A stretch of DNA of 64,000 bases from Rhizaria sp. SCN 62-66 (lineage: Eukaryota), in assembly GCA_001724265.1 (NCBI GenBank), contig MEDY01000031.1, forward strand, positions 1 to 64,000. The letters are read 5' to 3'. Positions 12,337 to 36,945 of the stretch are shown here, in pieces; position 1 is the stretch's first letter; each line of letters starts with the position of its first letter. Under the pieces are notes generated by a model that saw only the letters and a list, made by a program, of their open reading frames with translations, was not told the origin of the DNA and ran no database searches. The translations under genes were made by a program, and so were the position numbers.

Positions 12337-15300
12337 TCAGATACTGCGCATGGGCTGCGAGCCGTGCTTGTAGACGGACCAGAGCCGCTGCACCTCGGCA
12401 CTCAGCGATGCGACCTTGGCGTTGAGCTCATCAATGCGTCCTTCACTGCTAGCGCCACTGCTGCTGCTCGCGGCGGCGGCGACCGACGCGGCGGCAATGG
12501 CCGCGGTGAGCCCGCGCGGGCTGGCGGCGGCGGCGGCGACAGCGGAGCTGGCGCGCTCGTACCGGTCGCGCGCGGCCGCCGGGTTCAGCGGCTCGCGCGA
12601 AACGCCCCAGCGCGCGGGCTGCAGCGAGCGCGCGGCGCCAGGCGGCGGCGCGGGGGCCAGGCTCGCGGCGGCGCCCGACGCGGCGGGCACGGGCGCGGCG
12701 ACAGCGGCGGCACTGATGGGGACACCAACCTCGGCGCCAATGCCGCTGTCGACGTCGTCGTCGGCGTCGCTGTGGTCGCTGCCGCACGCGGCCTCAGAGG
12801 CGGCCTCCAGCTCCATGATCTCGAGCACGGCGGACCGCAGCTCGCTTGCGCGCTGGCGGAACGCGAGCGCGTTGGACCGCTGTCGCCGGCCCTGACGCTG
12901 CAGCCACTCGCGCGCCAGCGTGCGCGCCGCGGCCAGCTGCGTCGCAGTCGGCCGCTCGCCGGCAGTCGCACAGCAAGCAGCGCTGCACGCCGCTGCCGCA
13001 GCGCCATCCTCCTTGGCGGGAGCAGCGGCTGCGCCAGCAACAGTTGCAGCGGCAGCAGCAGCCGCACCGGCGGCGGCGGCGGCGGAGCCGAGCTTCTTCT
13101 TGGTGCCCGCGAGGCCGGTGCCGGTGCCCAGGCGCGCAAACACGTCCGCGACGTCGTCCTCGGTGTAGACGCGCCCGTGCTCCAGCGCGGCCACGTCGCT
13201 CGCGGGCACAGGCGGGGGCGCCGCGGGGGCCGCGCCAGCCTTGACCGCGGCCGCGCGCGCTGCGGCGTCGCTCACGCCGGCAATGAGCGCGGTGTTGTGC
13301 GCGGCGCGGCGCAGCAGTGCGCGGTAGCAGTCGAGCGGCTCGTTGAAGTACGGCCCCTGCGCGGCGGCCGACGTCACAGCGCGGCGCGTAACGGGCGCTT
13401 CGCTGGTGTACGTCGCGGCCTCGACCGCGGCCGCGGCCTCGGCGGCGGCGTCAGAGCCGGGCGCGGCGGCCGAGGCGCGGCGCAGCAGCCGCAGCGTGCG
13501 CAGCCCGGCGCCGCGCTCGGCGGGCAGCGGCGTCTCGAGCCCGTGGTCGAGCGCGGCCGTGCTTACCGTCGCGGCGCCGCGCGAGCCGCCGCGGCCCGAG
13601 GGCGAGAGGCGGAAGCGCACAAGCAGCAACACGGCCTCGAGGAAGTCGGCACGCACGGAGCCGACGTCGCTGGGCGGGTGCGCGGGGTCGCAGCGCTGCA
13701 GAATGTTGTCGCGCAGCTGCAGCAAGTCCCCCACGCGCAGCGCGCAGAAGCGCCGCAGCGCCGCCAGCAGCCCCGCCTGTAGCGCCTGGATGTAGGGCTC
13801 GGAGAAGGTCACGGGCAGGAACGCCTCGAGCATCGACACGACGCGCATCGCGTTGGGCACGTGCCGGAACGCGGTCCGCAGCCGGAGCGCGGAGCCGGAG
13901 CGCGTGAGCGCAGTCGTCGCTGCCGCCAAGGCCGCGCGCGCCGCCGGCGAGTGCGACGGCGCCGCGCTCTGCTGCGTGGGCGAGAGAAACATCGACTGCG
14001 ACTGTGATGGAGCTTGCGATTGCGATTGCGGCTACGATTGCGATGTCACAGCGCCTGTTGCGGCGCTATCGTCTGTCTCCGCGTGCGTCGCCAGGCGGCT
14101 CCCCGCTGCGTCGATGTACGCGGGCACGGCGACGGGCGAGAGCACCACCAAGATCGGTGCGTCGCGCGAGGAAGGCTCTGAGGTCTGGCCAAGCGGCGCG
14201 AGCAGAGACTGCGTCAGCTCCGGCTGCGCCTGCGAGCCCACCGTGCCGACAGAGTCCGCGCCGGCCCCGGCAGCGGCGCTGGCGCCAGCAGCGGCGGCGC
14301 TTGCAGCAGCAGCAGCAGCAGCAGCAGCGGCCGAGGGCACGGGCACGAGCGAGAGGTCAGCCGCGGCCAGCGCGGCGGCCACGTGCGCCGCCGCGGGCGC
14401 GCCGACTTGCAGTGACAGCGACTGCAGCGGCGCGCTCCCATCAGAGGAGTTGGCATCGACACTCGCAATCGCACTCGCATTCGCGCTCGCGGTCGCGTTC
14501 GCGATCGTGCCGTTCTCGCCGCTCTCACGCGCGGCTTCGCAGTCGGTCATCGCGACCTGTCCAGCGACGGCGTTAACAGCGCCGAGGTTGCTGCCGCTGC
14601 CGGTGTGATAGACGCGGAGCGCGGAGGCAGACTCGAAGCCCCACTTGGACACGCGCACGAGCGCGCGGTCGAGCCGGCGCAGGTACCCCGCGGCCGCGGC
14701 GGGCGCGATGCACACGGCGCCGTTGTCCAGCGCCACGACGTCGACGACCGTGCGCGGGGCCGAGTCCGCGGCGGGCGAGCCAGAGAGCGCGGCGGATGGC
14801 GCGCAGGTCGAGGCCGCGGCGGTGGACGCGGCTCCGGATGGCTGCACAGACGGGACCGACAGCGCGGCCGACGGGGGTGATCGCGCCCCCGGTGCGGCGT
14901 TCACCGAGGCTGTCACCGAGGCTGTCGCCGCAACGGGCGCACGCGCTGCGTGCTGCGGCAACGTGGACGCATGCGAGGACGCGTGCGCGTGCGGGCGTGG
15001 CGTGAGCATCAGGTTGCCCGGATTGCCGAGGTTGTCGGCCACGAACGGCAGGCGGTCTGTGTAGTTGCAGAGCAGGTCCAGCGCGACGATGGCGCCTATC
15101 TGCTGCATTACGGATTCGCCTTCGGAGCGCGCCGCGGGTAGCCCCGCCACGGGCCGGTGCCGCTCGCAGCGCGGAGGGAACGGCGCGTCGGCTGCCAGCA
15201 GCGGCACGTGCGCGTCCGAGTCTGCCGCAGCGGCGCTTGTGTTCGTGGGGTCCCAGCCGGCCGGCGGCTGGAAGGGCGGCAGCGGGCGAAACCAGCGGCG

Positions 15301-15827
15301 CAGGCGTGCGGCGAAGGCGAGGTCGCCGGGGACGGCAGTGAGCACGCGGCCGCGGAGGTACTCCATCAAGATGACGTAACCCTGTCGAAGCTTGCCAGTC
15401 ACTTCGACGCCCAGCGCGTTCTGCGCCTCCGTCAGCGCCGACATAACCTCGGGACGCTCGGCCTTGCGGAAGAAGGTCATTACGGGCGCGCGCACGCCCA
15501 AGGCGGCGGCCAGATGAGTGGCGAACAGCTCGCCCATGAGCTGGATGGTGCCCTTAAGCACGACAGCACCGGGCTTCGGTCCTCCGAACTCGACGAACAC
15601 GACGCCTAAACAAGGCAAGATTGAGGCAATAACAGAATTGTAAGATGCAATAACGCATATAATTCACGAAACAGAGACGTATGCGTGTTATGGTAAGACA
15701 TACCTTGACTACCCTCGGCACTTTGGCCAATTCCAACAACATGGTTCCAGTCCAGGTCGTCGATGTCAGCTACGGGGGCGCATGAGAAGTCAAAGGCGCG
15801 GTAGACTCGTTCGGCCGGGGGCTCCAT
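12337..15827 (-). CDS. Actin-fragmin kinase (AFK) catalytic-domain protein, ~1130 aa, with one in-frame TAG at 14032-14034
   Basis: Exon 1 15827-15704, exon 2 15605-12337. AFK-like motifs SAEGSQGVVFV, VVLK, ELFATHLAAALGVRAP, ILMEYLRG, MQQIGAIVALDLLCNYTDRLP, GNPGNLML, VALDN lie before the TAG. AFK C-lobe-like helices (IQALQAGLLAALRRF, VRADFLEAVL) lie after it in the same frame. Terminal stop TGA. Confidence 0.85.
14032..14034 (-). other. In-frame TAG codon (candidate sense codon)
   Basis: TCG CAA TCG TAG CCG CAA TCG CAA TCG CAA; frame is open on both sides. Confidence 0.8.
15606..15703 (-). other. Spliceosomal intron of the AFK gene
   Basis: GTATGT...TTGTTTAG, AT-rich, phase 1; joins EGSQ-G-VVFV. 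Confidence 0.85.
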
Positions 15828-17325: not shown

Positions 17326-20300
17326 TTAGTTGCGATCTTGGCCCCGCACGCTGCGACGACGCCCACTTGCGTCAAAAGTCGACGCGGCGTCAGCATCAGC
17401 CTCAGCTTCAGCCTTGCCAGCAGGCGCGGCCGTCTCCGCGACCGCCTCTGTTGCGGTCGCCTGCGCGGCACCAGCCTTGTCAACCTTGCCCTTACCGGGC
17501 GTCTTGGCAGGAGTACTCTTCTTGGTGCTCTTGTTTGATGCGGCGGCCGCGGGGGCAGCGGGGGTGAAGGCCTCCGCCTCAGTTTCCGCCTCCGCAGACT
17601 CGGCGGAGGTGGGCGCAGCGGTGGCAGGAGCGGGAGAGGTGTCGACCCCACTGCGGCGCGTGCGGGCGTTGGTTCGAGGCGCAACACTGTCTGCCTCCGC
17701 ACTCGTCGCGCCATTCTCGGCCTCAGCAACAGGCACAGCCGCGGCCGCATCAGCAGCAGGTGCGACATTGTCCTCAGCGGCCGCATCGGCGGACACCGCC
17801 TCAGCATCGGCCGCGGCGTTCGCAGCTGCTGCCTCCGCGGCGGCGCGCCGAGCTGCAGAGGCCGCGGCGGCGCCTCCAAGCTTACGGGGCTTGGCGGCCT
17901 GGGCAGCCTGGGCCTTCGGCGGCAGAGCAGCATCCGAGCTTTCGTCAGTCATCGCTGCACCCGCAGCGCCCGCCTTCTCCAGCGCATCCGCTTGGGCGGC
18001 ATCATTGGCGGCAGCTGCCTCCTTAGCGGCGGCGGCTTTCTTGGCTTCCTGCGCAGCCTTCGCGGCTTGGGCGGCCTTGGACGCCTTAGAAGCCTTGCTG
18101 GCCGGGGTCTTGGCGGGCTTCACATCATCCGCCGCCTCCTCCGCCGCCGCCTCAGAGCCGGCTTCTGCAACGGAGCTTGCTACGCTCGCGGCAGCCTCGG
18201 CAATCTTAGCGCTGTTCTTGCCGGAAACCCTGAGCGGCGGCGCGGTCCCCGAGACCTCGGCTGCCACGGCTGCCCGCATTTCCTCGAACGAGAGCCCCGC
18301 ATAGGGGTCTGCCTCGGGCGGCGGGATCACCGGCGACGGCAACTCCGCCCACTGCGCGCGCGCGCGCTCGACGTTGCGCTCCAGACCGGGCAGCGTGTGC
18401 GACACGAAGTCGGGGAAGGCTAGCACCGCGTCGGAGAGCGAAACGTCTTCCTCTTCCTCCGCAGCAGCAGCACCGTCCGCTGCGCCCGCGGCGGGACGGG
18501 CACGCTTCACACGCGCCGCGCCGTCTTCACCATCCTCCTCGTCGTTCGCGACGGCGGAGGCGGCACCCGCGTTCTTACCGGCGGCGAGCGCGGCGCGGCG
18601 GCGGGCGAGCTGGCGCGCGATAGCGTCGTAGAGCTGGCCCTCGGCGGCGAGCTCGCGGACCGGCACTTCCAGCTCGCCGGCGCGCACCTGCAACGACGGC
18701 GCAGACACGTGGTACGGCGGGCCCGGCAGCAGGCGAGGCTCGCGGATGGCCGCGTGGCCAGTCTCGGTGCCACGCGGAATAACGCCACTGCCCAGGCGCT
18801 TCTTGATCGTGATCGTCAGCGGCATCGCGGGCGTCGCCAGCAGCGGCGCGTAAATACGGCTCAGCGCGTTGTCGCGCAGGCGCGCCGGGCCCTCGGCCAG
18901 CAACTCGCCCCCGCCCACATTGAACGACTGCGCCGCCGAGCTTGGAAGCGAGGCTCCGCTGGCGCTCGCATTCAGGCTCAGGCTAGCATCCGCGGACTCC
19001 TTGTCACCGTCATCGCCAGCAGATGAATTGCTGACCTGCTTATTAGCGCCAATCATGACTTCACCACTGCTCGGCGTCGCTTGAGCGTCTCCACTCTTCT
19101 TAACGGCATCGGTTTCCTTCGCAGCAGCGTCATCGTCGTCGTCGCCGTCGCTGCTGGAGAACTCGTCCTGGCAGTCGGAGCCCATGAAGTTGAGCATGCG
19201 AGCCGAGATCGTGTTGATGCGCAGCGTCACGCGCGGACCGCGCGGGAGTCCGTCGCGTGGGTCCAGCGGTGCCATGTCCACGGAGATCGGTGTACTCTCA
19301 TCCGCGTCGCCACTTGCGTCAAGCTCGGCGGGGGCTTCGGCGGCGGCAGCGGCCACGGTTGCAGCCTCAGCGGACGCAGCGTCAGCCGCACGCGTCGCAG
19401 CGCGCTCCGCGATGCGCTCTTCGCGGCTACGCGTGGCGTTTGCGCGCGCGGCCTCGAGGGCGCGCTCAGCTTCTTCGCAGGCCGAAGTCAACCCATAGCG
19501 CGCGGGCGCGTTGGGCGCGCGCGTGAAGGGCAGCGTAAGACGCACGCCACCCGCAGAGCGGAAGACGGGGTGCAGCGGCTCATTGTTCCAGCCCAAGTCG
19601 TCGACCGATAACACGTGCGATACGAGCGCGCGACCCGGCTGAGCCATGAATGCTGCGAACATGCCGCCTCCCACACTCTTAAAGGCGTTGCCGTAAATCT
19701 TTCGTTTCGAAAGCATCGCCGCAAAATAGGAGACCACGTTTGCGCGCACTGATAACTCGCCACTCGGATGCACCTGAGTACGTTCCTGCAGTTCAGCGAG
19801 GTTGGACTCAGCGTTTTCAATGGACTCTGCAGCTTCATCATCAATGTCAGTGTCATCTTCAGAAGTGTCACTGTCGTCACTGAGCGCGGCAGCGGCTGCT
19901 GCAGCCGCTGCCGGGCGCCCACGCGGCCTCGGACGCGCGTTCTCGGAGGCCGCGGCACTGGCGGGCGTGGCAGCGAGTGGCGCCGCCTGGTATGCGAGCG
20001 CAAGAGCATGGTTACATTTCTAGAACTCGCGGCGCTTCTCGGCGCTGACTTCCGGCGGGTAGGCGCGCGACTGACAGTTGACTGGGTCGGCGCGCTGGCA
20101 CTGCTGGCAGTAGAAAACCTCCAGGTCGCACTCGGCGGCGGCGATGGTGAGCCCCACGCAGCGCGGGTGGAACCAGCGCTCGCAGGGACCCTCGCAGCCG
20201 AGCAAGTGGTTGCCGTCCTCGGAGATGAGCAAGTCGTGCACGTCCACACTCGCATCAGTGACCTTGACCAGCTGCACGCCGCTGCCCTGCGAGCCGCAGA

Positions 20301-23300
20301 TGCAGAAGGAGGCCGCATCCTCGATGCCGGCCGCACCGGCCCCAGCCGCTTGCCCGCCCGCGCGCGCTGCCATGTGGCCTCCACGCGCTCCGCCGCGGCC
20401 GCCGCGCATCGCGCTGCGCTGGGCGGTGCGCGCGGCGTCGTTGTGGACGCGCGCCTCGACCTTGGTGATCGCGGCGTCGAGCGCGCGCCAGCACTGCTGG
20501 ATGAGCTTGCTCTTGGCGGGGTCGTTGGACTCTTGCGCCAGTGCCGCAGCGCGCGCCGCAGATGAATTGACCGAGCTGGCCGCGAAGAGCTGCTGCGCGG
20601 ACACGTACGGCGTCGTCGAGCGCACGCGGTAGCAGTACGTCGTGCCGCCCACGTACGGCACGCCAGCGGCGGCCGCGGCGGCGCGCGTTTCCTCCTCGTC
20701 GTCGCCCACCGCGGAAGCGGCGCCGGTGGCGGCAGTGGCGGCAGTGGCGGCAGTGGATGCGGTGGACTCGACTGTGTAGTCAACGCCGGGACCAAAGATT
20801 TGCGGCGGCAGTGGCACGCCCATCGCCATGAGCTGCACCTGCAGCAACCCGGGGCCGGCGTGGGCGTTGCCGATACCGGGCCGCAGCGCAGCGGCCGCGG
20901 CGGCGGCCTGCGCAGCATGGTCGGACGACTCGATGCCGTAGTTCATCGCTGTGGCCGACGCAGCCGCAGTTGAGCAGGTCTGCATGCAAGACAGCAAGGC
21001 ATGTGACAAGTTTTGCTGGATGCGCTGCAGCACTGGCGCCGGCGGGACAACCACGTTCGACAGCGGCACAGGCGCAGTGCCCGGCGGGGACGCCACGGCA
21101 GGCGGCGCAGAACCGGGCGGGGCCATTGACTCGGGCAGCGGCACGCTATGCGTGCGGTGGAGCTGCTGCGCGTGCTGTTGCTGCAGCTGCGTCAGATGCG
21201 CTTGCTGCTGGCGCTGCAGTTGTTGCGCGCGCGCGTACTCAGCGTAGGCCGTCAGGACCGCGGCCTCGTGGCGCCGCTGGCGCTGCATGGCGGCCATGCG
21301 CGCAGGCGGTGACCGCAGCGCAGGGGCAGCGTTGCCGCTCATGGTCGCGGCGCCCATGCTGTACTCGCTCATCCCAGTCGTCGCAATGTTGCCTACAAGC
21401 AGGTTGTACAGCGCGCGCGCACGCGCCTTGTTGTTGGCGAGCGTCTGCGCGTTGAGCTCGCGGTGCAGAAGCATTAGCTCGCACGACACCATGTCGACGA
21501 CGGTGCCACCGCCGAGGCTGATCGAGGCCGACGTCGTCGCACTGCCCGCGGGAGTCACAGCGCTGTCCTCAACCAAGGTGCTCACAACGCGCGCCACTTC
21601 GCGCACGCGGTCGTGCTCCGCCTCGACGACCAAACGGCCGCCGACACTCGTCAGCGTCTCGGCGCGCGCCAGCGAGCTCACGCCTGGAGTCGCCGCCCCC
21701 GCGGCCGGGAACGGCAGCACGTAGCGCTTCGCCTTGAAGCGCTGACACATCTCGACGATGTCGTGCGTCGACGGAATACGCGCACGTGCGCAGAAGGCCG
21801 TTGCCAGCGCGGCGGCCGCAATGCGCACGCGGCGGCGGATAAGGCGGGAGAGAGCCTCAACGCGGCCACCGCTCTGCGTAGCAAAGGAACGCAACAGTGC
21901 AGTCTCGAAGGTTGCCTTGATGAAGCTCACGTCGGCGCCCGCGAGGCCACCAATGCGCGCATTGATGGCGTCAGAGCCGACGGAGCCTGCCAGCGCAGCA
22001 CCGTGGGCGCCACCGGCAGCGACCGCCATCTGCATCGCGGCGCCGAGCGGCAGCGGGCCGTGCACCCACCAGTAGCCGGGACCGAAGGCGTGCAGCGCGG
22101 CCAGCGGCGGCAGCGGGTGAAGCGAGGGCGGGTGGCGCAGCGCAAGGCTCTTGACACGCAGCGCCTGCAGCACCGAGTGCGGGCCCGGCGCAACAAGAGG
22201 CACCGCGTCGGTGACAAGGCCGGAGCCAGTGACGGCGCCTGCGATCGCGGCGGGCTGCGAGGCAGCGACGCCAGCGGTCTGCCGCGCCAGCGCCTGGAAC
22301 ACGCTCACGGGCTGGAGCACCGTGCCGGGCACGTACTCGAGCCCCGGCGCGGGAGACGCGTCGCTCTCAAGCGAGACAACAGCACCTGAGCCGGTGGCGA
22401 CGGCTTCGAAGCTGACCGCAGTGGCAGTTTCAATCGCGTTCACCGTGCGCTGAAGCAGTTCGAAGGCCGTCTTGCGCCAAGGCGCACCGTGAGGGCCAGG
22501 GTCGAGAGACGCGATCAGGGCAGCCGCCTCGCGCGCGTCACCGTTTGCGGGCGCGGCGCCAAGTCCGAACACGGGGCGTAGGGCAGCGGGCACGCAGTCG
22601 CGCCACAAAGCGGGCTCATTTGCGGTGCCCAACACAGCAGACGCCGCCGAGAGCGCGGTGGTCACGGTCTGCGAGGCACTGGCCGGCAGCGCGATAGCGC
22701 CTCCGACGCTGCCATCAACCATGGCCGTTGCTAGGCGAGCGCGCTTGGTGTCCTCAGGTCCGACCGTAGCCGGTGACCGCTTGATCTGAGCAGTGGCGCT
22801 GTGCTGGCGCTGCCACATGCGCTCGACAGCGGCGGCGCCCTCAGCCAGCGTCACGAGCGGACTGGTATTCGCACCCAGTGCGGCGGCCGCGGCGGGCGCA
22901 GAGGCCGCGGCTACGGACGACGACACGAGGTGGCTGATCACGGCAGACACACAGCCGGAAGCCGTGGCCGACACCGACGGCAGCGTGCCCTCGGGGTTCG
23001 CGGCGGCCTTCTCGGCGATCACGGCGGTCTCAGCGCGCGCGCGGCCGCGGGCGAGCGCGGCAGAGGCAGCGACAGAGGCACGAGTGTTGAATGCCGTGGT
23101 GCGCGCCGCTGCGGCAAAGGCGGCCCAGCGCAGTCGACGCGGGCTCAGAAGCGCTTCGAGCGCGCGAGGCAGCATCGGACCGGAGCGGCGCGCATGAGTG
23201 ATCGGCGCCATCAACGCACAGACGTGCGCGAGCGACGGCAGGTAGCAAACGCCATCCTCGGCCGCGGTGGGCACAGCGGGGTCTTCATCCTCGTCTTCGC

Positions 23301-26300
23301 CGCTGTCGTCGCCGTCGTTAGTGTCGTCGACGGCAGGCGCACGCACGCGGCCGAGCCAGCGCGCCTCCAGCGCAGCGCTCTCGCTCTCCACGGCGTACAT
23401 GGCGACCGTGAGCGCGGTGCGCGCGGCCTCGGTGGTGACGGGCTGCGGCGTGATTGTGAGCAGGATGCGGCGCATCGCCGTCTCCACAAGCGCACGCGCA
23501 CGCGCCACGTAAGTGGACGAGTACGCGCGCTCCGTGAGCAGAGCGCGCACGCCCGCGTCACCGCCCGTGCCCGCAGTCGTGCCAGGGGCGTTGGGCGCGC
23601 CGTACGCGCGCGTGTGCGCGTTCGCCAAGCTGAGAACATCGGTCGCATTGTCCACGAGGCTGCCACACAGACCCGACTTGGGCCCAGAGGCGGCAGCGAC
23701 GGTCGCGGCGGCAAGAATGCTCGGAGTGGTCCCTGGGGCGACACCGGGTGCCGAGACGGCGGGGAAGATGGACGGGCAGTACACGTGCAGCGCCTCGGGC
23801 GCGGGCAGCGGCAGCGGCGGTGCGGGCACCGTCAGCGCAAAGCGGGAAGTCGGCGCGGGCAGCAGCGCGGAAGGCACGTCGCCGGCGCCAGACTGGAGTG
23901 CCGCGACAATCGTAGCGGCCTCATCAGCGCTGAAGACGTGCGGGAAAACGCTAGTGCGGGGCTTGCGCTCGCGCTTGATAGTCGGCTCAACCTTTACCTC
24001 GGGCTCCACTACCTCAAGCTGGGCAGTGGATGCGGTTGCAGAAGTCCTGACACCGGCATTTGGGCCCGAAGATGTGCGCGCGAAAGCAACCCAACGTGGC
24101 TTGACGTTAGCGAACCCAGGAGCGGGCTCGTAGACGACCTCGACCGCACCGGCAGCAGTGCCGTATGTGTTCGCGCCGCCGGCCTTAAGCGCACTGACGG
24201 CGGCGTCGGCAAGCGTGCCGTTGCGCGCGTCAGAAACGGAGCCGCCGGCTGCGCACGCGGCAAACGCGCCAGGTGCGAGGATTGTGTTGGGCGCCTGCGA
24301 GACCTCGATGCCCGCTGCGCGTGAGCGCTCCAGAGAAGACTGCGCAGCGGAGAGCGCGGCAGCGGCAGCCGTCGAGCCCGACACCTCAGAGGCCCAAGGC
24401 ACGGTGGCAAGCGACACTGCGTCGCCACCCTGCGGCACGGGCGCCGTGAAGGGCGCAGTGACGACAGTGAGCGCCTCACCGGGGATCTGCGCCGAGGACA
24501 TGACGTGCACGACAGAGCGTGCGGCGCCGCCGAGGCAGATGAGGTCGTCGTCGACCTGGTCCTCGCGCGGGGCCGCGCCCGTGGCGGCGGCTTCCTCACG
24601 CGCACGCGCCACGGCAAGCGCGCGCTCGGTGGTGACCGTTAGCACGCCTGCCGCGGCCGCCAAGTGCGTGGGGTGGGCAGTGTCGAGCACGGCGTCCACG
24701 AAGCCCTCGGCCGCGGTCGCGCTGGCAAAGGTCGCGCCGGCGGACTGAGCTGCGGGCGCCTGCACGGGCGCGGGCTGCACAGAAGGCAGCGCGGGCACCT
24801 GCAAGCCCGCACCGAGCGGGACGAGCGACTTGAAGACGGGCAGCGCCGAGTCGAAGCGCGACGCCGTGGCGATGGCCAGCGGCTCGAAGTTCAGCAGCGC
24901 GGAGTAGCTCGTCGCGGCCGTGCTCGCAGACGCGCCTGCACCAGCGGAGGACGAAGACGCAGATGCAGAAGCAGAAGAGGACAAGGCAGCAGGAGTGGTC
25001 ATGGACAGCTTCCTAGAGGCAGTCGTGTTGGGCAGCGGACTTGTTGGGGGCTCAATCTTGACCTTGACAGGCGTGCCAACAGTTCCCACGGGCCGGCTAG
25101 CGTCGCTGGTGCTGCTCGAGCCATCGACGTAGTCGAGCAGGGCGTCGCCGGTGAGCGCAATAATGCCAGCGGAGGGATCAGACCCTTCGGGGCCGTCCTC
25201 GCCTTCGGAGCCGTCATCTTCGATGATGTCGCGCCGGTTCGCAAAGCCGCCACGGCCGCAGCCACGACCGCGCCCACGACGCTTCGAGCTGTTACCGGTG
25301 CGGCCGCGGGTACCACTCCCGGTACTCGGGCGCCCGCCACGGCCGCGGTTGCGCGTTGAGTCCTCGTCGTCCTCTTCCTCCTCGCCTTCTTCATCGTCCT
25401 CTTCGTCCGCGACAGCGCGCGCGGAGCTTGCGCTGGGCTTGGGCGGCGCGGGCAGAGTGTTGGCGCGGACGCCGCCGCCGAGTCCGCCGATGTCCTTGAC
25501 GGCGTCGTCGGCCTCGTCCGTGCCGACCGTGGACTCGTCCTCGGCGCGCACATACCACGGCACGGCCGACCAAGTCGGCTCTGCGAAGATGCCCATCAGA
25601 CGCGGCTTGGCGCCCGCCACGGCGGCGACGCCCGTGTCGTCGTCGTCGCCGGCGTCGTCGTCGCCTGCCACGGCGGCCGAAGGCGCGCCGGAGAGCAGGT
25701 TCGCCGACACGGGCGCCAGCGCTTCCTCGCCGCCCGTCGACTCGTACACCATCGGCGGAAACACCCACCGCGAGGGCTCGTTCACCGTCTGCAGCGCGCT
25801 GGGGTGCGTCGGCAGCGGCGCGCGCTCCAGCAGCTGCCCCGCCGCCGCGGAGCCTTCCTCGGTGGCAGAAGCAGCAGTGTCGGTGGCAGCGGCGGCGTTG
25901 GACTCGGCCTTGACAGCGGCAACCTGCGCGAGCGCGGCGGCGCCCGCCGTGGCGGCGGCGGTGAAGGTGCCAACGCTGATCTGCGACGTGATGTACGAGT
26001 AGTTGGACGACGCCAGTGTCGCCGTGGGCAGGATCTTGGCCGGCGGGACGTACGCGTACGTCACCGACACGTCGCCCAGCGCGGGCTGTAGTGAAGCGGC
26101 CGCCGATGCGGTCTCGGTGCCGGGCTCGCGCTTGACAGCCGCAGAGGCGGCGCCCTTGGTGACCTTCTTGTGGGCAGCGGCATCCGCAGCTTCAGCAGCG
26201 GTGCGGCGCGCGACGGCGTCGGCGACGGGCTGCGGGAAGATGAATGCCGCGGGCACGGGGCTGGTGGGCGCGACCTCGTCCAGGCCGTTGGGCGCAACGG

Positions 26301-29300
26301 GGTCGTCGACGGCGCGCACGCGGCCCGCGGCGACGGAGTCGTAGGTGCCGCTCGCGAAGTTGCCCGACACGGGGTCGAACGGCGCGCGCGCCACCACTGT
26401 CGCAACGGGTACCGCAGCAAGCTGATCATCGCCCTCAGTCGGGCTCGCAGAAACAGGCGCGGCGGAGTCGGCGCGCTCGCGCCACACGGTGCCGGAGTAG
26501 ACGACGTCGTCGACGCCGTTGCAAAGGCCCATGGCGGGCGTCACCGTCCCCCACGACTTGGATATCTGGTAGGGGTCAGTTGAACCGGACGCGGCACCAG
26601 AGGCAAGCGCAGCCGAGCCTGCGGGGCCGACGAGGTGGAGTCCGACGGACAGCGCCGTCGGCATCGTCATCACCGATGTGCTCGACAACATACGCGCGGA
26701 CGCCGTCGCCTTTACCGACGCAGCGGGCACCAGAACCGAGCCGCCGGGCGCGGCAGCGGCCGCAGAGTCGTCAGTCTCGTCGGTCTCAGCCGCAGCGGGG
26801 GCGGCGCGGAGAGTCGCCTGGGCCGCGGTCGACACGGTTTGTAGCGCCGTCTTGGACGTTGAAAACGTGCACGCCTCGAGCAGAGCGCCCGTGACCTGAT
26901 CCAGAGTCTCAAGAGAGCGAGGCACGGGCACCGCACCGGCCTCGGTGCCAGTGGTTTCAGCTGCCTCAGTGGCCGTGGCAGCTGCCGCGGCGGCCGTCGA
27001 GAGCGCGACACGCATCGTGTCATAGACCTGGGAGATAGAGCTCACGGCCAGCAGCGGCATCAGCGACGGCGTCTGCGCGGGACACACAGCCGAGCCCGCG
27101 CCCAGCAGCGACGCTGCGGGCAGCAGACTGCGCTGTCCCGCCGCCAGCATCGCCGCGCGCGCGCGGTCCACTGGCGTCACCGTGGGCACAGGGGCGGCCG
27201 CGGGCTGGCGGCCGCGCGGCTTGCCCGTCGACGTCGTGGACGCGACTGAGGCCTTGATCGTGTCGAGCTCAGCCGATTCAACCGGGCTGTCCATCATCGA
27301 GACCCCAGCTGGGCCGGGCGTTGCAGCGCCGCTCTCGGAAGCGCCGGGCGCCAGGCCCAACGCGGCGAGTTCGGTGCGCTTGATGGCGCGCTCGCGGCGG
27401 GCCATCGCAGCGCGCGCGCGCAGGTGTGCGTGGAAGCGGCCCCAGAAGTCGACGCGCGCCGTGGTGACGGGCGCACCGAAGGTGTGCGGCGCCGTCAGCA
27501 GAGACGAAATGCCAGCCGCGGCGGCCGCTGCCGAGAAGGACACGGGCGTGCACAGCGAGGGCGGTGCGAAGAGTGCGCGCGTGAAGTTGGTGAGCCTGCG
27601 TTTGCCGATGCGCGAGATCTTGCCGTCATAGCGCAGCGAGCGCAGTGAGAAGTAGGGCCGCAGCGGCGCGCGGATTTCGCGCTGCAGCAGGTGCGCATGC
27701 TCGTGCACAAAGTGCACAAGCGCGGGCGACACCGGAAGCAGCGCACGCATGTATCCGGCCAGCGTGTCCCAGTGCGGCATCAGCACGTTCGCGGCACGCT
27801 CGCGCTCCGCATCGGCGCGCGCCGTGTCGGTGTCGAGCTCGGTCACGCCGCCCGCGCCGGAAGGCACTACTGCGCTCATTGTCGCGGCAGTCGCCGCCGC
27901 AGCGGAGGGGTCAAAGCGCCCATTCGCGCCCGACGTGGCGCGCGCGGCCTCGGCCACGAGCGCAGCGAGAGCGGACGGACTGGCAACAGCGCCATCAGCA
28001 CAGCTGGTGGAGACAACGCCAGCGGGCGACAGCGTAACAGAGGCGCTGGCTGCGTCCCCGTCGGCCATGGCCTTGGGCGTGATCTCGACCCAGATCGAGG
28101 CCGAGTACGAGAAGGGCGTCGCCAGCGGCGGGCGCGGAATGCGGTCGAGCGGGTGCGCGAATGCGCCCACTTCGTCCTTGACCGCGCCGGCGTCGTTATC
28201 ATCGTCGGCCATGCGCACGGCAGCGCCGGCGGCCGCAGTGGCTGCGGCGGCGTAGGGGTTCTGGTCGCGCAGCGGGCGCGCGGCCACGACGGAGCGCAGC
28301 CCCACCGCGCCCTCGGCGCCCACCAGCGCGGGCGTGGCGCGCGTGGATACGGCAGTCTGCAGCGCCGAGGCGAGGTCGGCCGTGCCGCGCTGCAGCGGCA
28401 GCATCGGGTTCAAGTGGCCCTGCGCGACGGCGCTGAACACCTCGGCCGTCTCGCCCGCCACTTCGCCCGCGGCGGACGCCTCCTCCTCCGCGCGCGGCGG
28501 GAAAATGAGGCCGGCCACGGGCAGCAGCCGCACGCTGCCGCTGGCGACGCCGAGGCCAGCGCCGCCGTTGGTGACGGCAGCCGCGGCGCCGGGCGTCATG
28601 CCCGCGCGCACAAGGCGCTGCCCAACGGCTGACGCCGAGCCGGTCTCGAGCGCGCCCGCGGCGTTGGTGCCCGTGACGTTGATGCGGTCCGTCAGCAGCG
28701 TGTGCGCGGGCGCGGAGCCCATCGGCACACCCAGCGCGGCCGTCACCGACGCAATGGACTGGCGCACCGCGGCCGAGTCATTGGCCGCGGAGGAGTCGTC
28801 AGCAACACAGGGTGAAGCAGCAGCAGCGTCACCGTCGATTGCGAGACTGGTTTGTGCGACGGGGAGAAGCACATTCGCGGCGGTGCTGTACTCGTTGCCC
28901 TCGAAGACGCCCGTGGTGGAGACGCCGTTAGCGACGTGCCAGGCGTGCGGCTCGGGCACGGCGCCGCCGAAGTTGGCCAGCACGGGGTCCATGGCAAAGC
29001 GCGGCGCACCGGGCGCGCGCTCGGCGTCGGGCGCGGACACCGCCAGCGTCGCCGCGGGCACGGGCGCGGCGCCGCTGACGTTCTCGCGCGCCAGCCGCGC
29101 GTCGAGCGCGGCGGTGAGGTTCGTCGAAGAGAGTCCGAGCAGCGAGCCGAAGACGCCCGCGGCCACGGCGGCGGGCTCGTGGCGGCCGCCGACCAGCGAG
29201 GCCACCGTAGCTGCCGCCGCACGCACGGACTCGAGTCCGGCGCTGACCTCGGGGTTCACGCCGCCGTCGCCGCCCGCGCCGTGGCCCGTGCCCGCGCCGA

Positions 29301-32300
29301 CGCTCGAGGCGTTGGAGCTGGCGCGGCGGCCGGAGCTGGCGCCACCGCCGACGGCCGCGGAAGCGGGGCCTGGGGCGACGTTGAGGCGCGAGGCGGCGGC
29401 GACGACATCGGCCGTGAGCGCCTGCTCGGCCCACACCTTCCGGTAGTGGGCGCCCAGCGGCGGGATCACGACCTGGCCGGGCAGCGAGGGCGTCATGATC
29501 TCGATCAGGCCGGGCGACAGGGCCAGCCGCGCGTCAAGCGCTGCGGCGCAGGTCATCGCGCCGGGTCCGTGGCGCGCGCACACGCCGTTGCACTCGCTGC
29601 CGCAGCCACCGACCGCGGAGTCGGGCAGCGTGGCCTCGGCCGAGGCGTTGAGGAAGCGGCGCTTGGCACGGCGCAGCAGGCTGTGTACGAGCAGACGACC
29701 CTGCTTGGCCGTCGTGTCGTGCGCCGCGGCCAGCGCCACGGCGGCGCCAGCGGCGGCGTGCGCGGCGCGCGGGTCCGCGGGGTCCCTTGCGGCGCGCGCG
29801 GCGGCAATGGCGGCGCGCGTGACGGCGTCCTGGGCCGCGTAACCGAGCGCGGTCTCCTCCTCGGAGTCGGACACGGCGCGCGGAATCGAGGCTTCGCTGC
29901 TCATCGTCACCAGCGGTGGGCGCGCCACGGCGCTGGACGCGATTGCGGGGAAGCCGGGCGCAACCAGCGCGGCCAGATAGCTTGCCGCGCCGCCGTCGCT
30001 CTGCGCAGCCGCGGGGCCCGTGGCAGGCCGCCCGATCTTGTTGCGCGCCGCAGCCGCGGCAGCGCCCCGAGAGCCGCCACGGCCACCGTTGCGCATCATC
30101 CCGCGCCCGCGGCCGCGACCGCCGAACTCCTTCATGTGCGCAAACGCGCGCTGGCGCATGGTGACCTCGCGCTCGGGCTCGCCGCTGGGCCACAGCGCGG
30201 CCTCCTCCTCGGCCTCAACCGGGGCTTCGCCGGCGCTGCCGCCGCGGGGACTCGCGCGCGCTCGGGCGCGGGACTCGTCGTGCTAGTCTACCATGGCGTG
30301 GGCGGACCTGTATCCGTCGTCCTCGTCGTCGTCGGACATGCCAAGCTTGCGCCCCGTGGACGCGCCGGGTCGCCCGTTGGCGCGGGCACGCGCCGTGGCG
30401 CTCGCGCGCACCGCCCGCGCGGCGGTGGCGGCCGCTGCGGCAGAGGCGGATGTGACGCGGCGGCCGTTCGCGGTTGCCTTCTCTGCAGCAGCGAGCGCAG
30501 CAGCGGCGACCTCCTCGGCCTCGGCGAAGGCGTCGTCCTCCTCTTCCTCGTTCAGCAGCGTGTCGGCGCGCGGCAGCAGGGCGGCGACGGCGTGGGACCG
30601 CGCCAGGTCCATGCCGGCCTCATCCTCGGATGGGCTGGCGTCGCCGGCCATGAGCAGCTGCGAGCGGCGCATGGCGTGCAGCCGGCGGCGGCGCGCGTGG
30701 GCCGTCTCGCCGGGCAGCGGCGCCGTGAGCGCTGCGAACGTCGCGGTTGGTGGCGGCGGCAGCAGGTCGAAGAGCTCCTCCCAGGCGAAAAAGGGCTCAA
30801 AGTGGGCCCAAAACTGCTCGGCCGACTCTGCGCTCTCTTCGCTCTTGCTCACGTAGCCCGTGGGCAGAGGCACGCCGTTGACACCCGGCACCGTGCACGT
30901 CGAACCCGCGAGCGAGGCGTCGTGCGCGGCCGCGGCCGTGGCGGCGGCGGAGGAGCCCCGCGCCGTGGCGGGCGCCATCCAGGTCCCGCCAAGCACCAGT
31001 GCATTGCTGTTGGCGCCGGCAGCGTTGCCGGTGGGCGTGGAGTTGGCGCCCGGGACTGCGGCGGCGCCCGTCTCGCCCGCGATGCCCATGGTGTCAAGCG
31101 CGGCGAGCGGGTGCGCACCCGCGGGCCGCGGCAGCAGCGACGTGAGGCCGCCCGAGAGGTAGTCGCAGTTGGAGGTCCAGGTGAACTCGTCGGCGCTCGT
31201 GCGCGGGCCGCGCAGCGTGCGCGCGGCGCGGTGCTGGCGCACGAACTCGTTCTGGCGCTGCACCATCTGCTTGGCCGAGTTGGCCGCGATGTCCCAGCGC
31301 ACGATCGCGGCGTTGAGCGCTGCGGCTGCGACGGATACGCCAACGCCTGGCGTGCGCCCGCGCTTGACGCCCGCCTTCGCGGCCTTGGCCGCCGAGACGC
31401 TGTTGCGGCCGCCGCGGCCGCCGCGGCCGCGCTGCGAGTCACCGTCGGCGTAGGCCGAGGGCCGACCCGCGGTGCAGTCCTGGCAGGACCAGTCGCCGCG
31501 GGGCACCTCGGAGACCTTGACGCAGAGTTGGTGGAACGCGAGACTGCAGGGCCCGTCGCAGAGCATAATGGCGTTGCCGACGACAGACTCGCCGCCGCCG
31601 CAGACGGCGCAGACCCAGTCGTCTTCGTCGTCGTTGTCACCGTCGGAGCCATCCTTGTCGTCGGGCTTGGCGGGCTTGGCCTCGCCCGCGGCGCCCGCGG
31701 AGAGCCCGCGCATGGAGGCGCCGGAGCCGGCTGAGTCGCCCGCGGCCGTCTTGCCCGCGGCGGCGCGGCCCTGCAGCTGCGCGTCGCTAGGCGGGTCTGT
31801 CGACACCGAGGGCTTAGGCACGCGCGCGGGCGCGGCGAGCTGCTGCGGGTCGTAGATCAGCACAGTCATGGACACGTTGGTCACGAGCGACAGCAGGAAG
31901 CACTGCAGCGAACGCAGGTCCGGCAGCAGCGCGCGCACATACGCGGGCGCCACAGGGGCTTCTGCCGCCGCGGTGTTGGCGGCCGCGGCCGAGGCGGCGG
32001 CGGCAGCGGCGTCAAGCTCGGCGGCCCGGAGCGCGGCCTCATCAAACGACGCCGAGGCTGAGGCCATGATGAAACTGTCCGAGGCCTCGCTGGGCGCACC
32101 GGGCGGCGCCAGCACGGGCGTCGTGAGGGCCGCGCTGTCAGCCGCGGACGCCGCTACCGCGCCCGTGCGCCCGGCGGCCTCGAGCATTGCCGCGCGCGCG
32201 CCCGCGACGACCCACGTGATGTGGCGTAGAGCGTCGAGAGTCAGCGGACGGTACTTGCCGGGCGCATCCGCCTCAGCACTCGCCGCACTGGCGCCGGCGT

Positions 32301-34614
32301 TCGCAGAGCTGCCTTCGGAGCGGGGGTCGACGGCGTCGGCGAGAGAGGCAAGCGCGGCCCAGGGCAGCAGCGCGGCGGCGGTGAGGTGCGAGAGACAGCC
32401 CTGCGCCGAGAGCGTGGCGTAGGGCGCGGGCAAGTACACCGGCGCGGCCGTGCCGGGCGTGCCCAGCACCACGGCCTCGCCGGGGCCAAGCTGCCGCGCC
32501 GTGGGCGTCATCAAGCGCAACGCGGACGGCGGCGGCGGCGCGGGTGCGGACGGGGACGCAGTGGGGCGTGGCGGCGGCACCAGCGTCTGTGCGGCGGCGG
32601 CGGCGCGCACGGCAGCGGCGGCACTGGCCTTGTGCGACTTAGCAGGAGCCGCACGCTTGGCGAGCTGCTGCTGTTGTTGAACAATTTGGTTTTGCTGCTC
32701 AAACCTTGCGGCAGCACCAGCGGACGCGGCTTGAGTGGCGTTAAGTGCAGCTGCTGCGTTGCGCTGACGCTCAGCCACTTGTTTCCGCAGCGATTCGTCA
32801 TACTCAGCGCGACTTGCGGGGTCCATCGATCGCACAGCTAAGCGGTAGTGCGAAATCTCGCGCTCGCATGATGCGATCGTATTTTGCCGGGTCTGCGCGA
32901 AATGCGCGCGCATCGCCTCCATCTCGGCGGCGTGCTCGACCTGCATCTGCTGCATCCGCGCGTGCAGCTGCGCGGACGACATCGTCGCGGGCCGGCGCGC
33001 AAGGTCGTTGCGCGCGAGCGTGTGCTGGTGCTCCATATAGGCCCGCTGGGTGGTCCAGTCGCGCTCAACCTGCTCCACAGCGCCGCGGAGGTAGGCCATC
33101 ACCTCGTCCGGCACAATTGCGGACGAAGCATCATGCACCTGCTGCTGTTGCTGCTGCTGCATCAGATCCGCGTCCGTCATTGCGATCGGTCCGCCGACAG
33201 TGGTTGCGGCTGCGACCGTGGCTTCTGTTGCTGACGCTATTGCTGCGTCCGAGTTGCGGGCAGGGGTGACTGCGGCGGCTCTGTGGAGGCCCGCAAAGCC
33301 GTTGACGCGGCGCGAGCTGCCGCGCGCGTGTCGGCGCGTCTCGCCCGTCTCCGTGGGCACGGCCGCGGCGGCGCGGACGCCGGCCTGCACCGCGGCGCGC
33401 ACGCCGTCGAGCGCGCGCGGCGGCACGCGGTCGCGCGGCGCGGGCACTGAGAGTCCAGCAGTCAACGGGCCGGGCGGCAGGTCTGCGGCGGCGGCGGCTG
33501 TGGCGGCGGCGGCAGCGGCGGCGGCGCCCATGCGCGCGAGCTCGGCGTCGATGGCGGCCTGCGCGGCGGCCTCGGCGACGGCGTCGACTCGCAGCAGCGG
33601 CGACAGCGGGCGCTCAGGCGGGCGCGCGCGCGGCCCCCACGAGGGCGCGATGTACTCGGCGGGCTCGGGCGCGAGCAGCTGCGCCCGCACCAGCGCCGTC
33701 TCAGCCGTGAGCGAGAAGTCGTGGTCCCCGCCCGGCACACGAGGGGTCCCGTCGGGCGCGAACTCGAAGGCGAGCTGGAGCCCGCGGGGCAGCTCGGGGA
33801 GCTCGCGCTGCACCGAGAGCGCGACGAGCCCGGAGGATCCCACGGCCGCGGTGACGCGCGTGAGCGTGGAAAGCACCGAGATGACAGCCGCTGACAAGGC
33901 GCGCGGGGCGGCGCCGGCGGGGCGCGTGGGCGCCAAGGCGGCCGCAGGCGCAACACCTGAGCGCTGTTGTTGCTGCTGTTGTTGCTGCTGCTGCATCTGC
34001 TGCTGCATGTGTTGTTGCTGCTGCATGAATTGTTGCTGCTGCTGTTGTTGCTGCTGCTGCCACTGCTGTGGAGGTTGTTGCTGCTGTTGCTGTTGTTGCT
34101 GCGACCAGTAGTGTTGGTGCTGGTGCTGCTGCTGGTGTTGCTGCTGCTGCCAAGGCTGCTGTTGCTGCTGGTACGGCGCCGCGGGGCGACCTGCGTTAGG
34201 GACGGCCGCAGCTTGGGCAGCGCCCGCACCTGCGTAGTTGGCGTGCGCGTAGCCCGTTTTAGCGTGAGCGGGGTGGCCACCGGGAGGGACAGTCGAAGGG
34301 TAGCTACCCGTCGCAGCGGTTGCGGGATAACCATAGCCAATGGAAGCCGCCGCTGCGGGATACGTGTCATGGCCGTAGCTGTGGCTGGGGCTGTGACTGG
34401 GAGCGGCGCTGTGTTGCCCGTAGCCGTAGCCGGAGGGTTGAGCGTTGTAGCCTTGAGGGGCTTGGGTGGGGACCTGGGCAGGGGCGTAGTAGGGGCCGGC
34501 CGGGGGCGCATTTTGAGGCACAGCGGGAACATCGGAGGCTGCGGTTGTGTATGACGTCGCAGGTGGCGCGGGCGCACCGTATTTAGACCCGCTGGGGTCG
34601 CTGTTAGGGAACAT
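17326..34614 (-). CDS. Giant chromatin-associated protein with two PHD fingers and Ada3/TADA3-like motifs (~5762 aa if TAGs at 30283 and 20020 are read as sense)
   Basis: Track ORFs 30283-34644, 20020-30159 and 17326-19773 share one frame and are separated only by single TAGs plus open GC-rich codons. PHD1 CAVC..CDGPC..FHQLC..WSCQDC (~31473-31612). PHD2 FCIC..CEGPCERWFHPRC..FYCQQC (~20098-20304). Ada3-like FWAHFEPFF (~30800) and IPPLGAHYRKVW (~29450). N-terminal poly-Q; terminal stop TAA. Confidence 0.75.
20020..20022 (-). other. In-frame TAG codon (candidate sense codon)
   Basis: CGC GAG TTC TAG AAA TGT AAC CAT GCT; the same frame continues to TAA at 17326. Confidence 0.7.
30283..30285 (-). 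other. In-frame TAG codon (candidate sense codon)
   Basis: ATG GTA GAC TAG CAC GAC GAG TCC; the same frame continues for more than 3400 codons. Confidence 0.75.
33964..34170 (-). repeat. Mixed CAG/CAA poly-Gln tract
   Basis: Visible (TGC/TGT)n on the + strand; Q-rich N-terminal region of the giant protein. Confidence 0.9.
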
Positions 34615-34643
34615 CAGGGGGCGGGAGTGCGCGTTTGCCACCA

Positions 34644-34724
34644 CTAAGATGGGGAGCGGACCGGGTGACGGGCGGGCCGGTCGGGGGTCAGCGAAGCAAG
34701 TATTTACGAAAGGAGAACAATTAC
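34644..34724 (-). other. Probable 5'-UTR intron of the giant PHD gene
   Basis: CAAG|GTAATT donor and ATCTTAG acceptor 29 nt before the ATG; the upstream exon frame is closed by TGA. Confidence 0.45.
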
Positions 34725-36945
34725 CTTGTTGAAAAAACCTTCACACCCAAGAGGAAAAGAAAAAAAGAGATCATGTGAGAGTGTCGTTGTGTAGGATGGC
34801 GTTAAGGGCGGCGGACCGCGGTTGATGCTTAGGGGTGAGATGGGAAGCGTCCAAACAGTCAAGCAAGACAGCTATGGGAGATTTGAGAAATAGAACTCAA
34901 TATTTGTGTAGAAACGTTGTCTTTGTGTTATTTCGACAAGTAACAGCTGATATACAGCAATTGGGCGGCCCTCTGGACGTGGAAAATAGACTGGCCGACC
35001 CTTCGAGCCAGAACGAGTTGATTCTCTACAGAAGAGACTTGATCGTCAAAGACGCGGGAGATTAGCCAAGCAAAGAGAAACATCAAATTCGTAAACAAAT
35101 CATTTTATCGTTTCCCAATAAAATGCGTCTATCTCGCTGCTGTCGTGTTTTCCGTTTGCCACACGGCGCGGCCAGGAAAAGTTAAGCCGCATATGAGGCA
35201 AACGCCGAAGGGCCAAGCCCGACTTTGCGAGTTTTGAAACAACGATGCTTTGATGATTTAATTTAAGAAACTCATTCAGAAGATCGTATAAGATCCAGAT
35301 GCGTTGCGCTTTTTTAAGATAATAATAACCAGAGGCCACGCGATGGGAAGCAATCATAATTTTGTCGCCTGACAGGCGAGGTCCGCGTAACGACAACGTC
35401 CTTAGTACAGTTCCGATTTTAGGGCGCCAATAACGCGATTTCATGCCACATACGCTCATTTAGTAGCATTTATTACTTTGAACTTGAATCAAAATCGATC
35501 GGCCGCGTATGAGAAGGCTACATCACACTTTAGTCACATTCGCGTTCTGGAGTCACGGAGAGCTCCTTCGCTTGCCCTCCCCGACCATGCATATTGATGC
35601 AATATTGTTGATATATGTTTCTTAAAAAGATTATAATATATAACCTACACAGGATGTGTTGCTAGTATCTTTATTTTTACAATCACATTCTGTTTTAAGA
35701 CGTGGTTGCTTCGTGATTCAATTTAGGCGAAGGCTGAGTCACAAGCCAGGCCCATGGTCGTTCACTTTCAGATTAATCGCTCGACATCAAAGTGGACCAT
35801 TGTAGATATGAAAGCAACTTATTGTGGTATTCCCATGCAGTACCGCTCAATTAAATTATCGTTAACGGACTAACATGCTGTTTTGAATCAAATCTACAAT
35901 CATTGCTGGCGAACGGTCAAGATTTGCCTCTGTTGATCAGTTTCTATAGAGCCTGTAGCGATGAATCGATTCACAAACTCTAAAATAAATCATTTGATTA
36001 CAAGGTATTCAAACGCTATGCAGCCGTTCTAAATTCAATCCTTTTTCGACGCCCAAACATTACGATCCATGTCTCGATTCAATTCACACGCTCCTGACCG
36101 GCATCTCCGCCTCGTTGACTCTGACTCACCCAAGTCATCATTACCAACGCAGACAACATATTCACACGTAATACTACATGAACAATAACACAAGCTTAGC
36201 GGATTCACCATGGTTGGTTTCTTTCATGCAAGACACTGCTGTTGTTCGAACTCTCAACGGGCAATTTCGGCCGTACAGTGTGACCGACAACACGACTCGA
36301 GGTTTCTCGTAGCGTGCGAAACAAGGCAGAAATCCACCAAAAAAGGTCATTATTACCCAAAAAACAATATGAAACTATGCACTGTTGCACGCACACAAGC
36401 AGTTGTAACAATCGTGCGATGTCGCCTCACTTGTGTACAGGGGCCATCCGCAGTGACGATGCATGTGACGCAATGCAGGACCCCCCCCTCCCCCCCAATG
36501 GCACTTCACACACGGGTTCAAGACACAGCGACAGTAAAGCGTTGTACAGACATGTATAATATGTCGACCCACCTCAATCCCCTGGGGGGCGAGTGAACGG
36601 GCAATACAGCATGGATGAGCTTTTGTGGCACTCATTGACGGTGCGACGACCCCCTTGAAGCAAAAGCGGGATTATTTCAATACCAACAGGACATTCCGAC
36701 AATAGCATTTTGGGATAATGCCATAAATGCATTATGATTTCAGAATTAAAGCATGCCGTCTCCACTTGGCATGTTATTGAGTCCATTCGATGAACTTTTC
36801 TAATCGCAGCTCCCAGAACCCATAGTGGGTTAGGTTAGGTGAAGGGCTTGAAGAAGGTGAGTGTATCTGCACACTCTGATCGTCAGTTCTTGTTTAAGCC
36901 CGCATTTTTGCTAATTCAAGCTCCATTTATTATTCACTTATAATA

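Follow-up and report, generated by a model that had tools for sequence, protein, structure and literature searches.

To our knowledge, UAA and UAG are nearly always reassigned jointly. Among the codes surveyed in PMC11687900, reassignments of UAG on its own give Leu, Gln or Ser, and UAG means Glu only where UAA has been reassigned with it. UAG is Gln, with UAA and UGA kept as stops, in Iotanema spirale, Hartmannula sinica, Trochilia petrani and Protocruzia tuzeti (PMC5304391, PMC11687900); it is Leu in the rhizarian exLh (Sainouroidea) and in phyllopharyngean metagenome-assembled genomes from TARA, and Ser in Scotinosphaera, as cited in PMC11687900. Both UAR codons are Glu in peritrich ciliates and Blastocrithidia (PMC11687900, PMC12153298), and Oligohymenophorea sp. 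PL0344 is described as reading UAG as Glu and UAA as Lys and keeping UGA as stop, with ten CUA tRNA genes and abundant UAG (PMC10553269). Here we analyzed a stretch of 64,000 nt from Rhizaria sp. SCN 62-66 (GCA_001724265.1, MEDY01000031.1, positions 1 to 64,000), referred to as the window, which is the start of contig C31 in an assembly of 34.9 Mb and 714 contigs. On its minus strand, a gene resembling that of actin-fragmin kinase (AFK) is interrupted by an in-frame TAG. We consider it probable that UAG is a sense codon in the nuclear code of this organism, read mainly as Glu, and that UAA and UGA terminate.

Among the codes close to this one is that of PL0344, where UAG is also Glu and the tRNA-Sup(CUA) genes are nearest to tRNA-Glu; here, in contrast, UAA is the commonest stop, a single CUA tRNA came to light and UAG is seldom used. 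With the Iotanema-type codes the organism shares reassignment of UAG alone, UAA as dominant stop and, with Iotanema itself, a release factor eRF1 altered at T32 and K130, but UAG most likely means Glu here, and the codon, which occurs in 78-91% of genes in phyllopharyngeans (PMC5304391, PMC11687900), makes up about 1 of 7,500 in this genome. Glu is likewise the meaning of UAG in the peritrichs and Blastocrithidia, whereas UAA is also reassigned there, with a dual meaning in Blastocrithidia, and we saw no confident internal UAA. The exLh, TARA and Scotinosphaera codes resemble this one in decoupling UAG from UAA. The mode is that of the known suppressor-tRNA codes, from which the Glu meaning beside UAA and UGA stops, together with the rarity of the codon, sets it apart. 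A literature search for UAG as Glu with UAA and UGA as stops found no report; it covered subscription journals thinly, and an earlier report is possible.

From 14046 to 13993 the minus strand reads ACA TCG CAA TCG TAG CCG CAA TCG CAA TCG CAA GCT CCA TCA CAG TCG CAG TCG, or T-S-Q-S-*-P-Q-S-Q-S-Q-A-P-S-Q-S-Q-S, exactly the Ser-Gln repeat with TAG in a Gln slot that a preliminary description of the window had claimed. Readthrough at 14034-14032 makes of two open frames, 543 and 564 codons long, a single frame of 1108 codons that ends with the TGA at 12337. The TAG is real: run X3 is part of study P2, whereas the likely source run is part of P1, and a contig of X3 matches 12687-14251 without a single difference; the in-frame TAGs at 20020-20022 and 30283-30285 are spanned, again with 0 differences, by two further contigs of that run. 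The base-call error that the preliminary description had named as a threat to its reading is excluded by this second study's assembly. The stretch is present in runs from bioreactor, wastewater, activated-sludge and fuel-cell metagenomes; runs X4-X6 hold the same organism at low cover, and among their listed pieces none spans a TAG, nor does any listed RNA contig cross one. That the TAG within the AFK gene is read through is close to certain.

An exon 1 of 124 nt, whose addition carries the profile match to position 52 (E 2e-54), would be spliced to exon 2 and yield, with readthrough, a predicted product of 1130 aa in which the TAG is codon 566. The upstream half scores 43 bits with PF09192 against a cut-off of 24, and a profile that we built from 35 of 52 homologs (lengths 240-480 aa) has two matches upstream of the TAG, at aa 19-223 and 308-339, and one beyond it, at aa 601-687, in profile order; the downstream match reaches 20.9 bits (E 2e-8 for one sequence), while the best of 500 shuffles reached 0.3 bits. 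The downstream half was reached by this purpose-built profile only, with no match to Pfam PF09192 or in PDB, and the solved AFK 1cja matches the upstream half only. A Pfam Act-Frag_cataly match across the TAG, suggested beforehand as a check, did not materialize, the match lying upstream (aa 181-227); the claim that the TAG splits the AFK domain was nonetheless borne out by the built profile, with positions 83-233 and 236-271 upstream and 277-360 downstream. The TAG is placed between positions 271 and 277, in an insertion of about 260 residues, so a stop there would lose the last AFK helices. The N-lobe, catalytic segment and C-terminal helices stand in the same order as in AFK (PF09192, 1cja), but the AFK-like gene here is interrupted by long Ala/Ser-rich insertions and carries a 420-aa C-terminal extension. 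Public protein databases hold it as two separate half proteins. Searches for a full-length or orthologous AFK gene that might reveal the ancestral codon, another check suggested beforehand, gave nothing.

We next turned to the use of stop triplets across the genome. A three-periodic coding model was trained on 56 long frames, and every stop triplet with coding sequence upstream was classed, over 747 kb and 266 kb of partly overlapping loci with duplicates removed (~1.0 Mb), some of them chosen because they contained a TAG. Under the strict filter, 16 TAG, 0 TAA and 0 TGA were flanked by coding sequence both upstream and downstream, and noncoding sequence followed 69 TAA, 35 TGA and 3 doubtful TAG. 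Under the loosest filter, internal triplets numbered 28 TAG, 1 TAA and 1 TGA and terminal ones 90 TAA, 71 TGA and 8 TAG. Three of the eight TAGs among these 169 terminal-like triplets are intronic, three continue as plausible protein, one is weak and one is a TAG-TAA. In 464 kb taken without TAG selection (the window, C4 and C42; about 119,000 codons), the loose filter gave 16 internal TAG (one of them probably a splice acceptor), 0 TAA and a single weak TGA, a rate of about one internal TAG in 7,500 codons and an excess of TAG beyond chance. The focal TAG scored below this loose filter and is additional to these counts. The strict internal counts and the near absence of TAG from gene ends thus indicate that UAG is a rare sense codon across the genome, with UAA and UGA kept as stops. 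At the TAG-TAA gene end (C42:54970, plus strand; L131:4970), the TAG is the final sense codon or else a leftover UAG stop backed by a tandem UAA. Elsewhere, a lone TAA (L071:3051, minus strand) stands between coding-like stretches before an ATG and a Gln run, and would be a gene boundary or a nonsense allele.

Domains that hold internal TAGs include six protein kinase matches, two ubiquitin hydrolases (UCH), a Ras-like GTPase and a ubiquitin-like domain, and the insertion that divides a seventh kinase domain also carries one; across the TAG of a CaMK-like kinase the alignment is gapless. Nine of 142 Pkinase matches were TAG-only, five of these internal and four splice acceptors, and 16 further TAG-centred stretches gave a TAG inside one sub-threshold Pfam match and between both parts of one kinase. 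Most genes examined contain no UAG. The coding model found 0 internal TAG in ten dynein heavy-chain regions, and there was no true internal TAG among the matches read for dynein AAA_6, DEAD, kinesin, ABC, SNF2, myosin, AAA, TTL, GTP_EFTU, Mito_carr and EF-hand. All TAG-bearing matches excised from these families for inspection turned out to be splice acceptors or intronic; the excised set took in only part of the matches with mixed stops.

A tRNA able to read UAG is present. Screening the genome for the pattern of a CUA anticodon with a T loop downstream yielded 48 matches (88 in the reversed control), and ARAGORN was run on 30 of them and then on 10 more plus the C681 region. One tRNA(CUA) was found among the 48; seven others are out-of-register matches in tRNA-Ile or tRNA-Leu genes, none is of Gln type, and a DNA search gave no second copy. 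The gene is intergenic on C84 and followed by a poly-T terminator. Within a comparison set of 36 distinct predictions, which comprised neither tRNA-Asp nor tRNA-Glu(UUC), it is identical to tRNA-Glu(CUC) at 47 of 73 positions and to all others at 40 or fewer (33 for Gln(CUG), 29 for Gln(UUG)). It has the T stem and the first five pairs of the acceptor stem in common with tRNA-Glu(CUC), and a single base change at position 36 converts CUC to CUA. It has U11-A24, U13-G22, A46, no nucleotide 47, U35 and A37, all of which PMC9976931 describes among the identity elements of E. coli tRNA-Glu. By these features the tRNA(CUA) is built on a tRNA-Glu body.

One eRF1 was found, two other matches looking like Pelota, and its N-domain contains a TAG that aligns gaplessly to human E107 and recurs in an identical unspliced metagenome contig. 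Among 117 homologs (120 matches, with three fused ones left out), this column holds Glu in 108, Asp in 8, Val in 1 and Gln in 0. T32S, G57S, L124M and K130Q, at residues of the stop-reading motifs, each occur in 0 of the 117. Residue T32 makes a bond to the G of UAG and differs in Iotanema (PMC5304391), whose eRF1 also has K130Q (PMC5304391 Fig. S2); T58K, by contrast, is present in standard-code ciliates as well and so is not diagnostic (PMC5304391). The main text of an eRF1 screen (PMC12440015) names none of the positions altered here. The eRF1 TAG (L031, G000:C63, minus strand 1596-1594) lies in the stop-reading domain though UAG is rare, and the chance of at least one UAG in a gene of this length is about 6% at the average rate. 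A UAG inside eRF1 could give negative feedback on the eRF1 level, in that residual termination at this codon would cut the factor short and so reduce its amount.

Residue scores from Pfam profiles, summed by hand over nine domain sites with the TAGs in domain insertions L070 and L153 left out, also place Glu first (E 908.4, Q 904.7, K 904.2, S 899.1, Y 892.1, L 890.1, W 884.8 bits). Leu and Ser, the meanings of UAG in the exLh, TARA and Scotinosphaera codes as cited in PMC11687900, lie 18 and 9 bits under Glu, and the tRNA(CUA) is without a long variable arm. Neighboring residues speak to Gln: it adjoins 0 of 38 TAG sites, compared with 25% of CAG and 31% of CAA codons (p 2e-5), and none of the first 22 sites (p 0.002). 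CAA gathers in poly-Gln runs, with 41 of its codons inside QQ_QQ, and a Gln synonym arising by C-to-T transition should pile up in such abundant poly-Gln, so 0 of 38 counts against Gln. Genome-wide patterns added little; TAG in Gln runs gave 277 matches against 284 in the control and was uninformative, and TAG in Asp/Glu runs gave 1 match, which lies inside a Ser run on the other strand.

Several observations weigh against Glu. Its profile lead is 3.7 bits over Gln, about 4 over Gln and Lys, and a single kinase hinge site supplies 2.4 bits of that lead; at this site Ser is the residue in the best PDB matches (KSR), and RAF kinases carry Gln; for the L067 site, a PDB search gave no match at the threshold set. 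The closest eRF1 relative has Val at 107, and the site may be relaxed in this lineage. The D-arm features of the tRNA(CUA) also occur in the genome's tRNA-Gln(CUG), so the distinction between Glu and Gln rests on the acceptor stem and T arm, and tRNA-Asp and tRNA-Glu(UUC) genes were searched for but not recovered for the comparison. Asp or Glu adjoins 4 of 38 TAG sites, compared with 23% for GAG (p 0.04), and both TAGs of a gene on C681 stand opposite CAG in paralogous copies. A context classifier summed over 22 sites gave -2.05, where Glu predicts +13 +/- 5 and Gln -19 +/- 8, and thereby rejects pure Glu (p 0.0006) more than pure Gln (p 0.01); the focal context itself has log-odds of +0.85 for Gln and -1.15 for Glu. 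Other TAGs stand in a pure Ser run and in an Asn run. This suggests that most TAGs are young substitutions from several codons a single mutation away (CAG, TCG, GAG and others) in unconstrained stretches, which would reconcile the Glu and Gln context evidence. The focal TAG probably arose from CAG and, despite that origin, would now give Glu.

The strongest rival is that UAG means Gln, as in Iotanema, through an unassembled tRNA-Gln(CUA) or through GlnRS charging the Glu-derived tRNA(CUA) by way of U35. In its favor are, besides the paralogous CAGs, the Ser-Gln surroundings of the focal TAG and three more TAG contexts rich in Gln/His, second place in the profile scores, and the tendency, reported in PMC9976931, of E. 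coli amber suppressors with U35 to accept Gln. Against it stand the absence of Gln neighbors, the empty Gln class at the eRF1 column and the Glu-like body of the sole CUA tRNA found; conserved columns on which Gln can be judged are few. We regard Gln as unlikely. Of the preliminary description, which had taken the focal repeat as its best clue that UAG is Gln, the sense reading therefore stands and the amino acid probably does not, since the tRNA body, the eRF1 and kinase hinge columns and the neighbors point to probable Glu.

Quite unlikely, in our estimate, is an ambiguous UAG, contested between the suppressor tRNA and a partly terminating eRF1, or read as a mixture of Glu and Gln, and kept where loss or substitution is tolerated. 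Such ambiguity would fit the rarity of UAG, its absence from the dynein regions under the coding model, TAG contexts that match neither pure Glu nor pure Gln, and the one gene end that is TAG-TAA. G is also scarce after TAG (10 of 38, compared with 43%, p 0.02) and follows 60 of 104 true stops, but this +4 bias loses significance when all four bases are compared (chi-square p 0.18) or when codons after GAG and CAG are the reference, and eRF1 itself tolerates a TAG.

Explanations that involve no decoding of UAG are, all together, very improbable. A standard code, with the TAGs as nonsense mutations, pseudogenes or assembly errors, would account for their rarity and their concentration in lineage-specific genes, and could draw on one TAA in a Gln-rich frame and one weak internal TGA; yet internal stops are almost all TAG even under the loosest filter, gene ends are nearly free of TAG, eRF1 would end at residue 107, the TAGs of the window are unchanged in a second study and a cognate tRNA(CUA) is present, which makes this reading extremely improbable. 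Removal of UAG in RNA, by tiny TAG-ending introns or A-to-I editing to UGG (Trp), or decoding as pyrrolysine, is hardly credible: an in-frame GT does lie 18 nt upstream of the focal TAG's end and ARAGORN labels the tRNA(CUA) 'Pyl', but that label is assigned by anticodon to an ordinary 73-nt cloverleaf near tRNA-Glu, in-frame GT within 15-36 nt is no commoner at TAG (9 of 28 sites) than at GAG/CAG (40%), the eRF1 and CaMK-like kinase alignments have no gap at TAG, and Trp scores lowest in the profiles.

In the mechanism we propose for UAG as Glu, GluRS would charge the tRNA(CUA), the altered eRF1 would recognize UAG poorly enough for the tRNA to outcompete it, Glu would be inserted at AFK codon 566, and the ribosome would continue and complete the kinase fold. 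Genome-wide, UAG would occupy on the order of a thousand sites, mostly in unconstrained regions; this distribution fits early codon capture, in which one tRNA(CUA) gene serves the codon and selection may still oppose it. The fuller version, a Glu code with UAA and UGA stops caught at its beginning, with one tRNA-Glu-derived suppressor, UAG purged from gene ends and so far returned to only ~1/7,500 codons, and negative feedback through the UAG in eRF1, we put forward only tentatively and hold to be doubtful.

Table 1. Features of the AFK-like locus, its neighbor and the tRNA(CUA) gene. Positions are those of the window unless a contig is given.
Feature	Position	Strand	Basis
Exon 1 of AFK-like gene, ATG at 15827	15704..15827	-	sequence; profile extension
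GT-AG intron, 98 nt, 37% GC	15606..15703	-	inferred splicing
Exon 2, TGA at 12339-12337	12337..15605	-	frame analysis
AFK N-lobe and catalytic segment, profile 83-233	14995..15603	-	Pfam; 1cja, E 2e-7; built profile
AFK segment, profile 236-271, weak match of 2-3 bits	14647..14742	-	built profile
Ala/Ser-rich low-complexity insertion of ~260 aa inside the kinase domain, includes the Ser-Gln repeat	13864..14646	-	
In-frame TAG, sense codon, most likely Glu	14032..14034	-	sequence, second assembly, AFK profile, genome stop counts
AFK C-terminal helices, profile 277-360, downstream of the TAG	13603..13863	-	20.9 bits
Neighboring 5804-codon frame with two PHD fingers, open only with two TAGs read through	17326..34740	-	frames, Pfam
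Second in-frame TAG of the window	30283..30285	-	frames, coding model, run X3
Third in-frame TAG of the window	20020..20022	-	frames, coding model, run X3
tRNA with CUA anticodon, 73-nt ordinary cloverleaf	C84:76008-76080		ARAGORN

The neighboring frame at 17326-34740 is apparently intronless, with its PHD fingers about 3,750 residues apart. On the plus strand, 43117-50322 is a frame of 2401 codons with a mitochondrial-presequence-like start and no Pfam match, whose product has PPR-like neighbors in a protein atlas at 0.88-0.89, which we take as a lead only. Beyond the window, the C681 frame (C681:3-3600; L222, L160) runs for 1198 codons with an internal repeat, two TAGs and no TAA or TGA; it fuses a diverged ubiquitin domain to a Peptidase_S74 (endosialidase chaperone) domain and is possibly derived from a virus or mobile element. 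The ubiquitin genes found (L158, L161-L164) are a monomer or ribosomal-protein fusions of unusually divergent sequence, with no polyubiquitin junction among the sequences recovered.

With some twelve genes for dynein heavy chains, the organism is indicated to be a flagellate. In a quick tree of 31 of 120 matches, six environmental sequences but no named taxon fall together with its mitochondrial EF-G (SH-aLRT 100), and eRF1 homologs likewise led to no named relative. Three short eRF1 motifs are common to it and the sainouroid exLh, with counts of 0, 0 and 1 among the 117 other homologs; its eRF1 also has M34V and L126M in common with that of Guttulinopsis. As a lead, the organism is possibly a sainouroid rhizarian. 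The 18S rRNA gene (L034:1501-5945; G000:C706) is 4,445 nt long and very divergent, with four group I intron matches; two of these lie back to back in the first insertion, where an apparent His/Cys-rich frame may encode a homing endonuclease. A clade of relatives (P0007, P0184-P0189) is seen in metagenomes. The eRF1 of P0007 has M34V and T58K as here, yet its T32 and G57 are unchanged and its residue 130 is His, so perhaps only some members of this clade underwent the code change.

If true, this reading supplies the missing variant in which UAG alone becomes Glu, outside the ciliates and with the tRNA and eRF1 genes known. Were the organism a sainouroid, UAG would have been reassigned twice in the clade, to Leu in exLh and to Glu here. 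The half-protein entries in public databases mean that the genome needs re-annotation. The eRF1 changes at T32 and K130, shared with Iotanema, are candidates for a release factor blind to UAG alone, which would be useful for genetic code expansion. The rarity of UAG may expose an early stage on which the codon-capture model and the ambiguous-intermediate model differ, and the organism, found repeatedly in samples of wastewater, may be open to cultivation.

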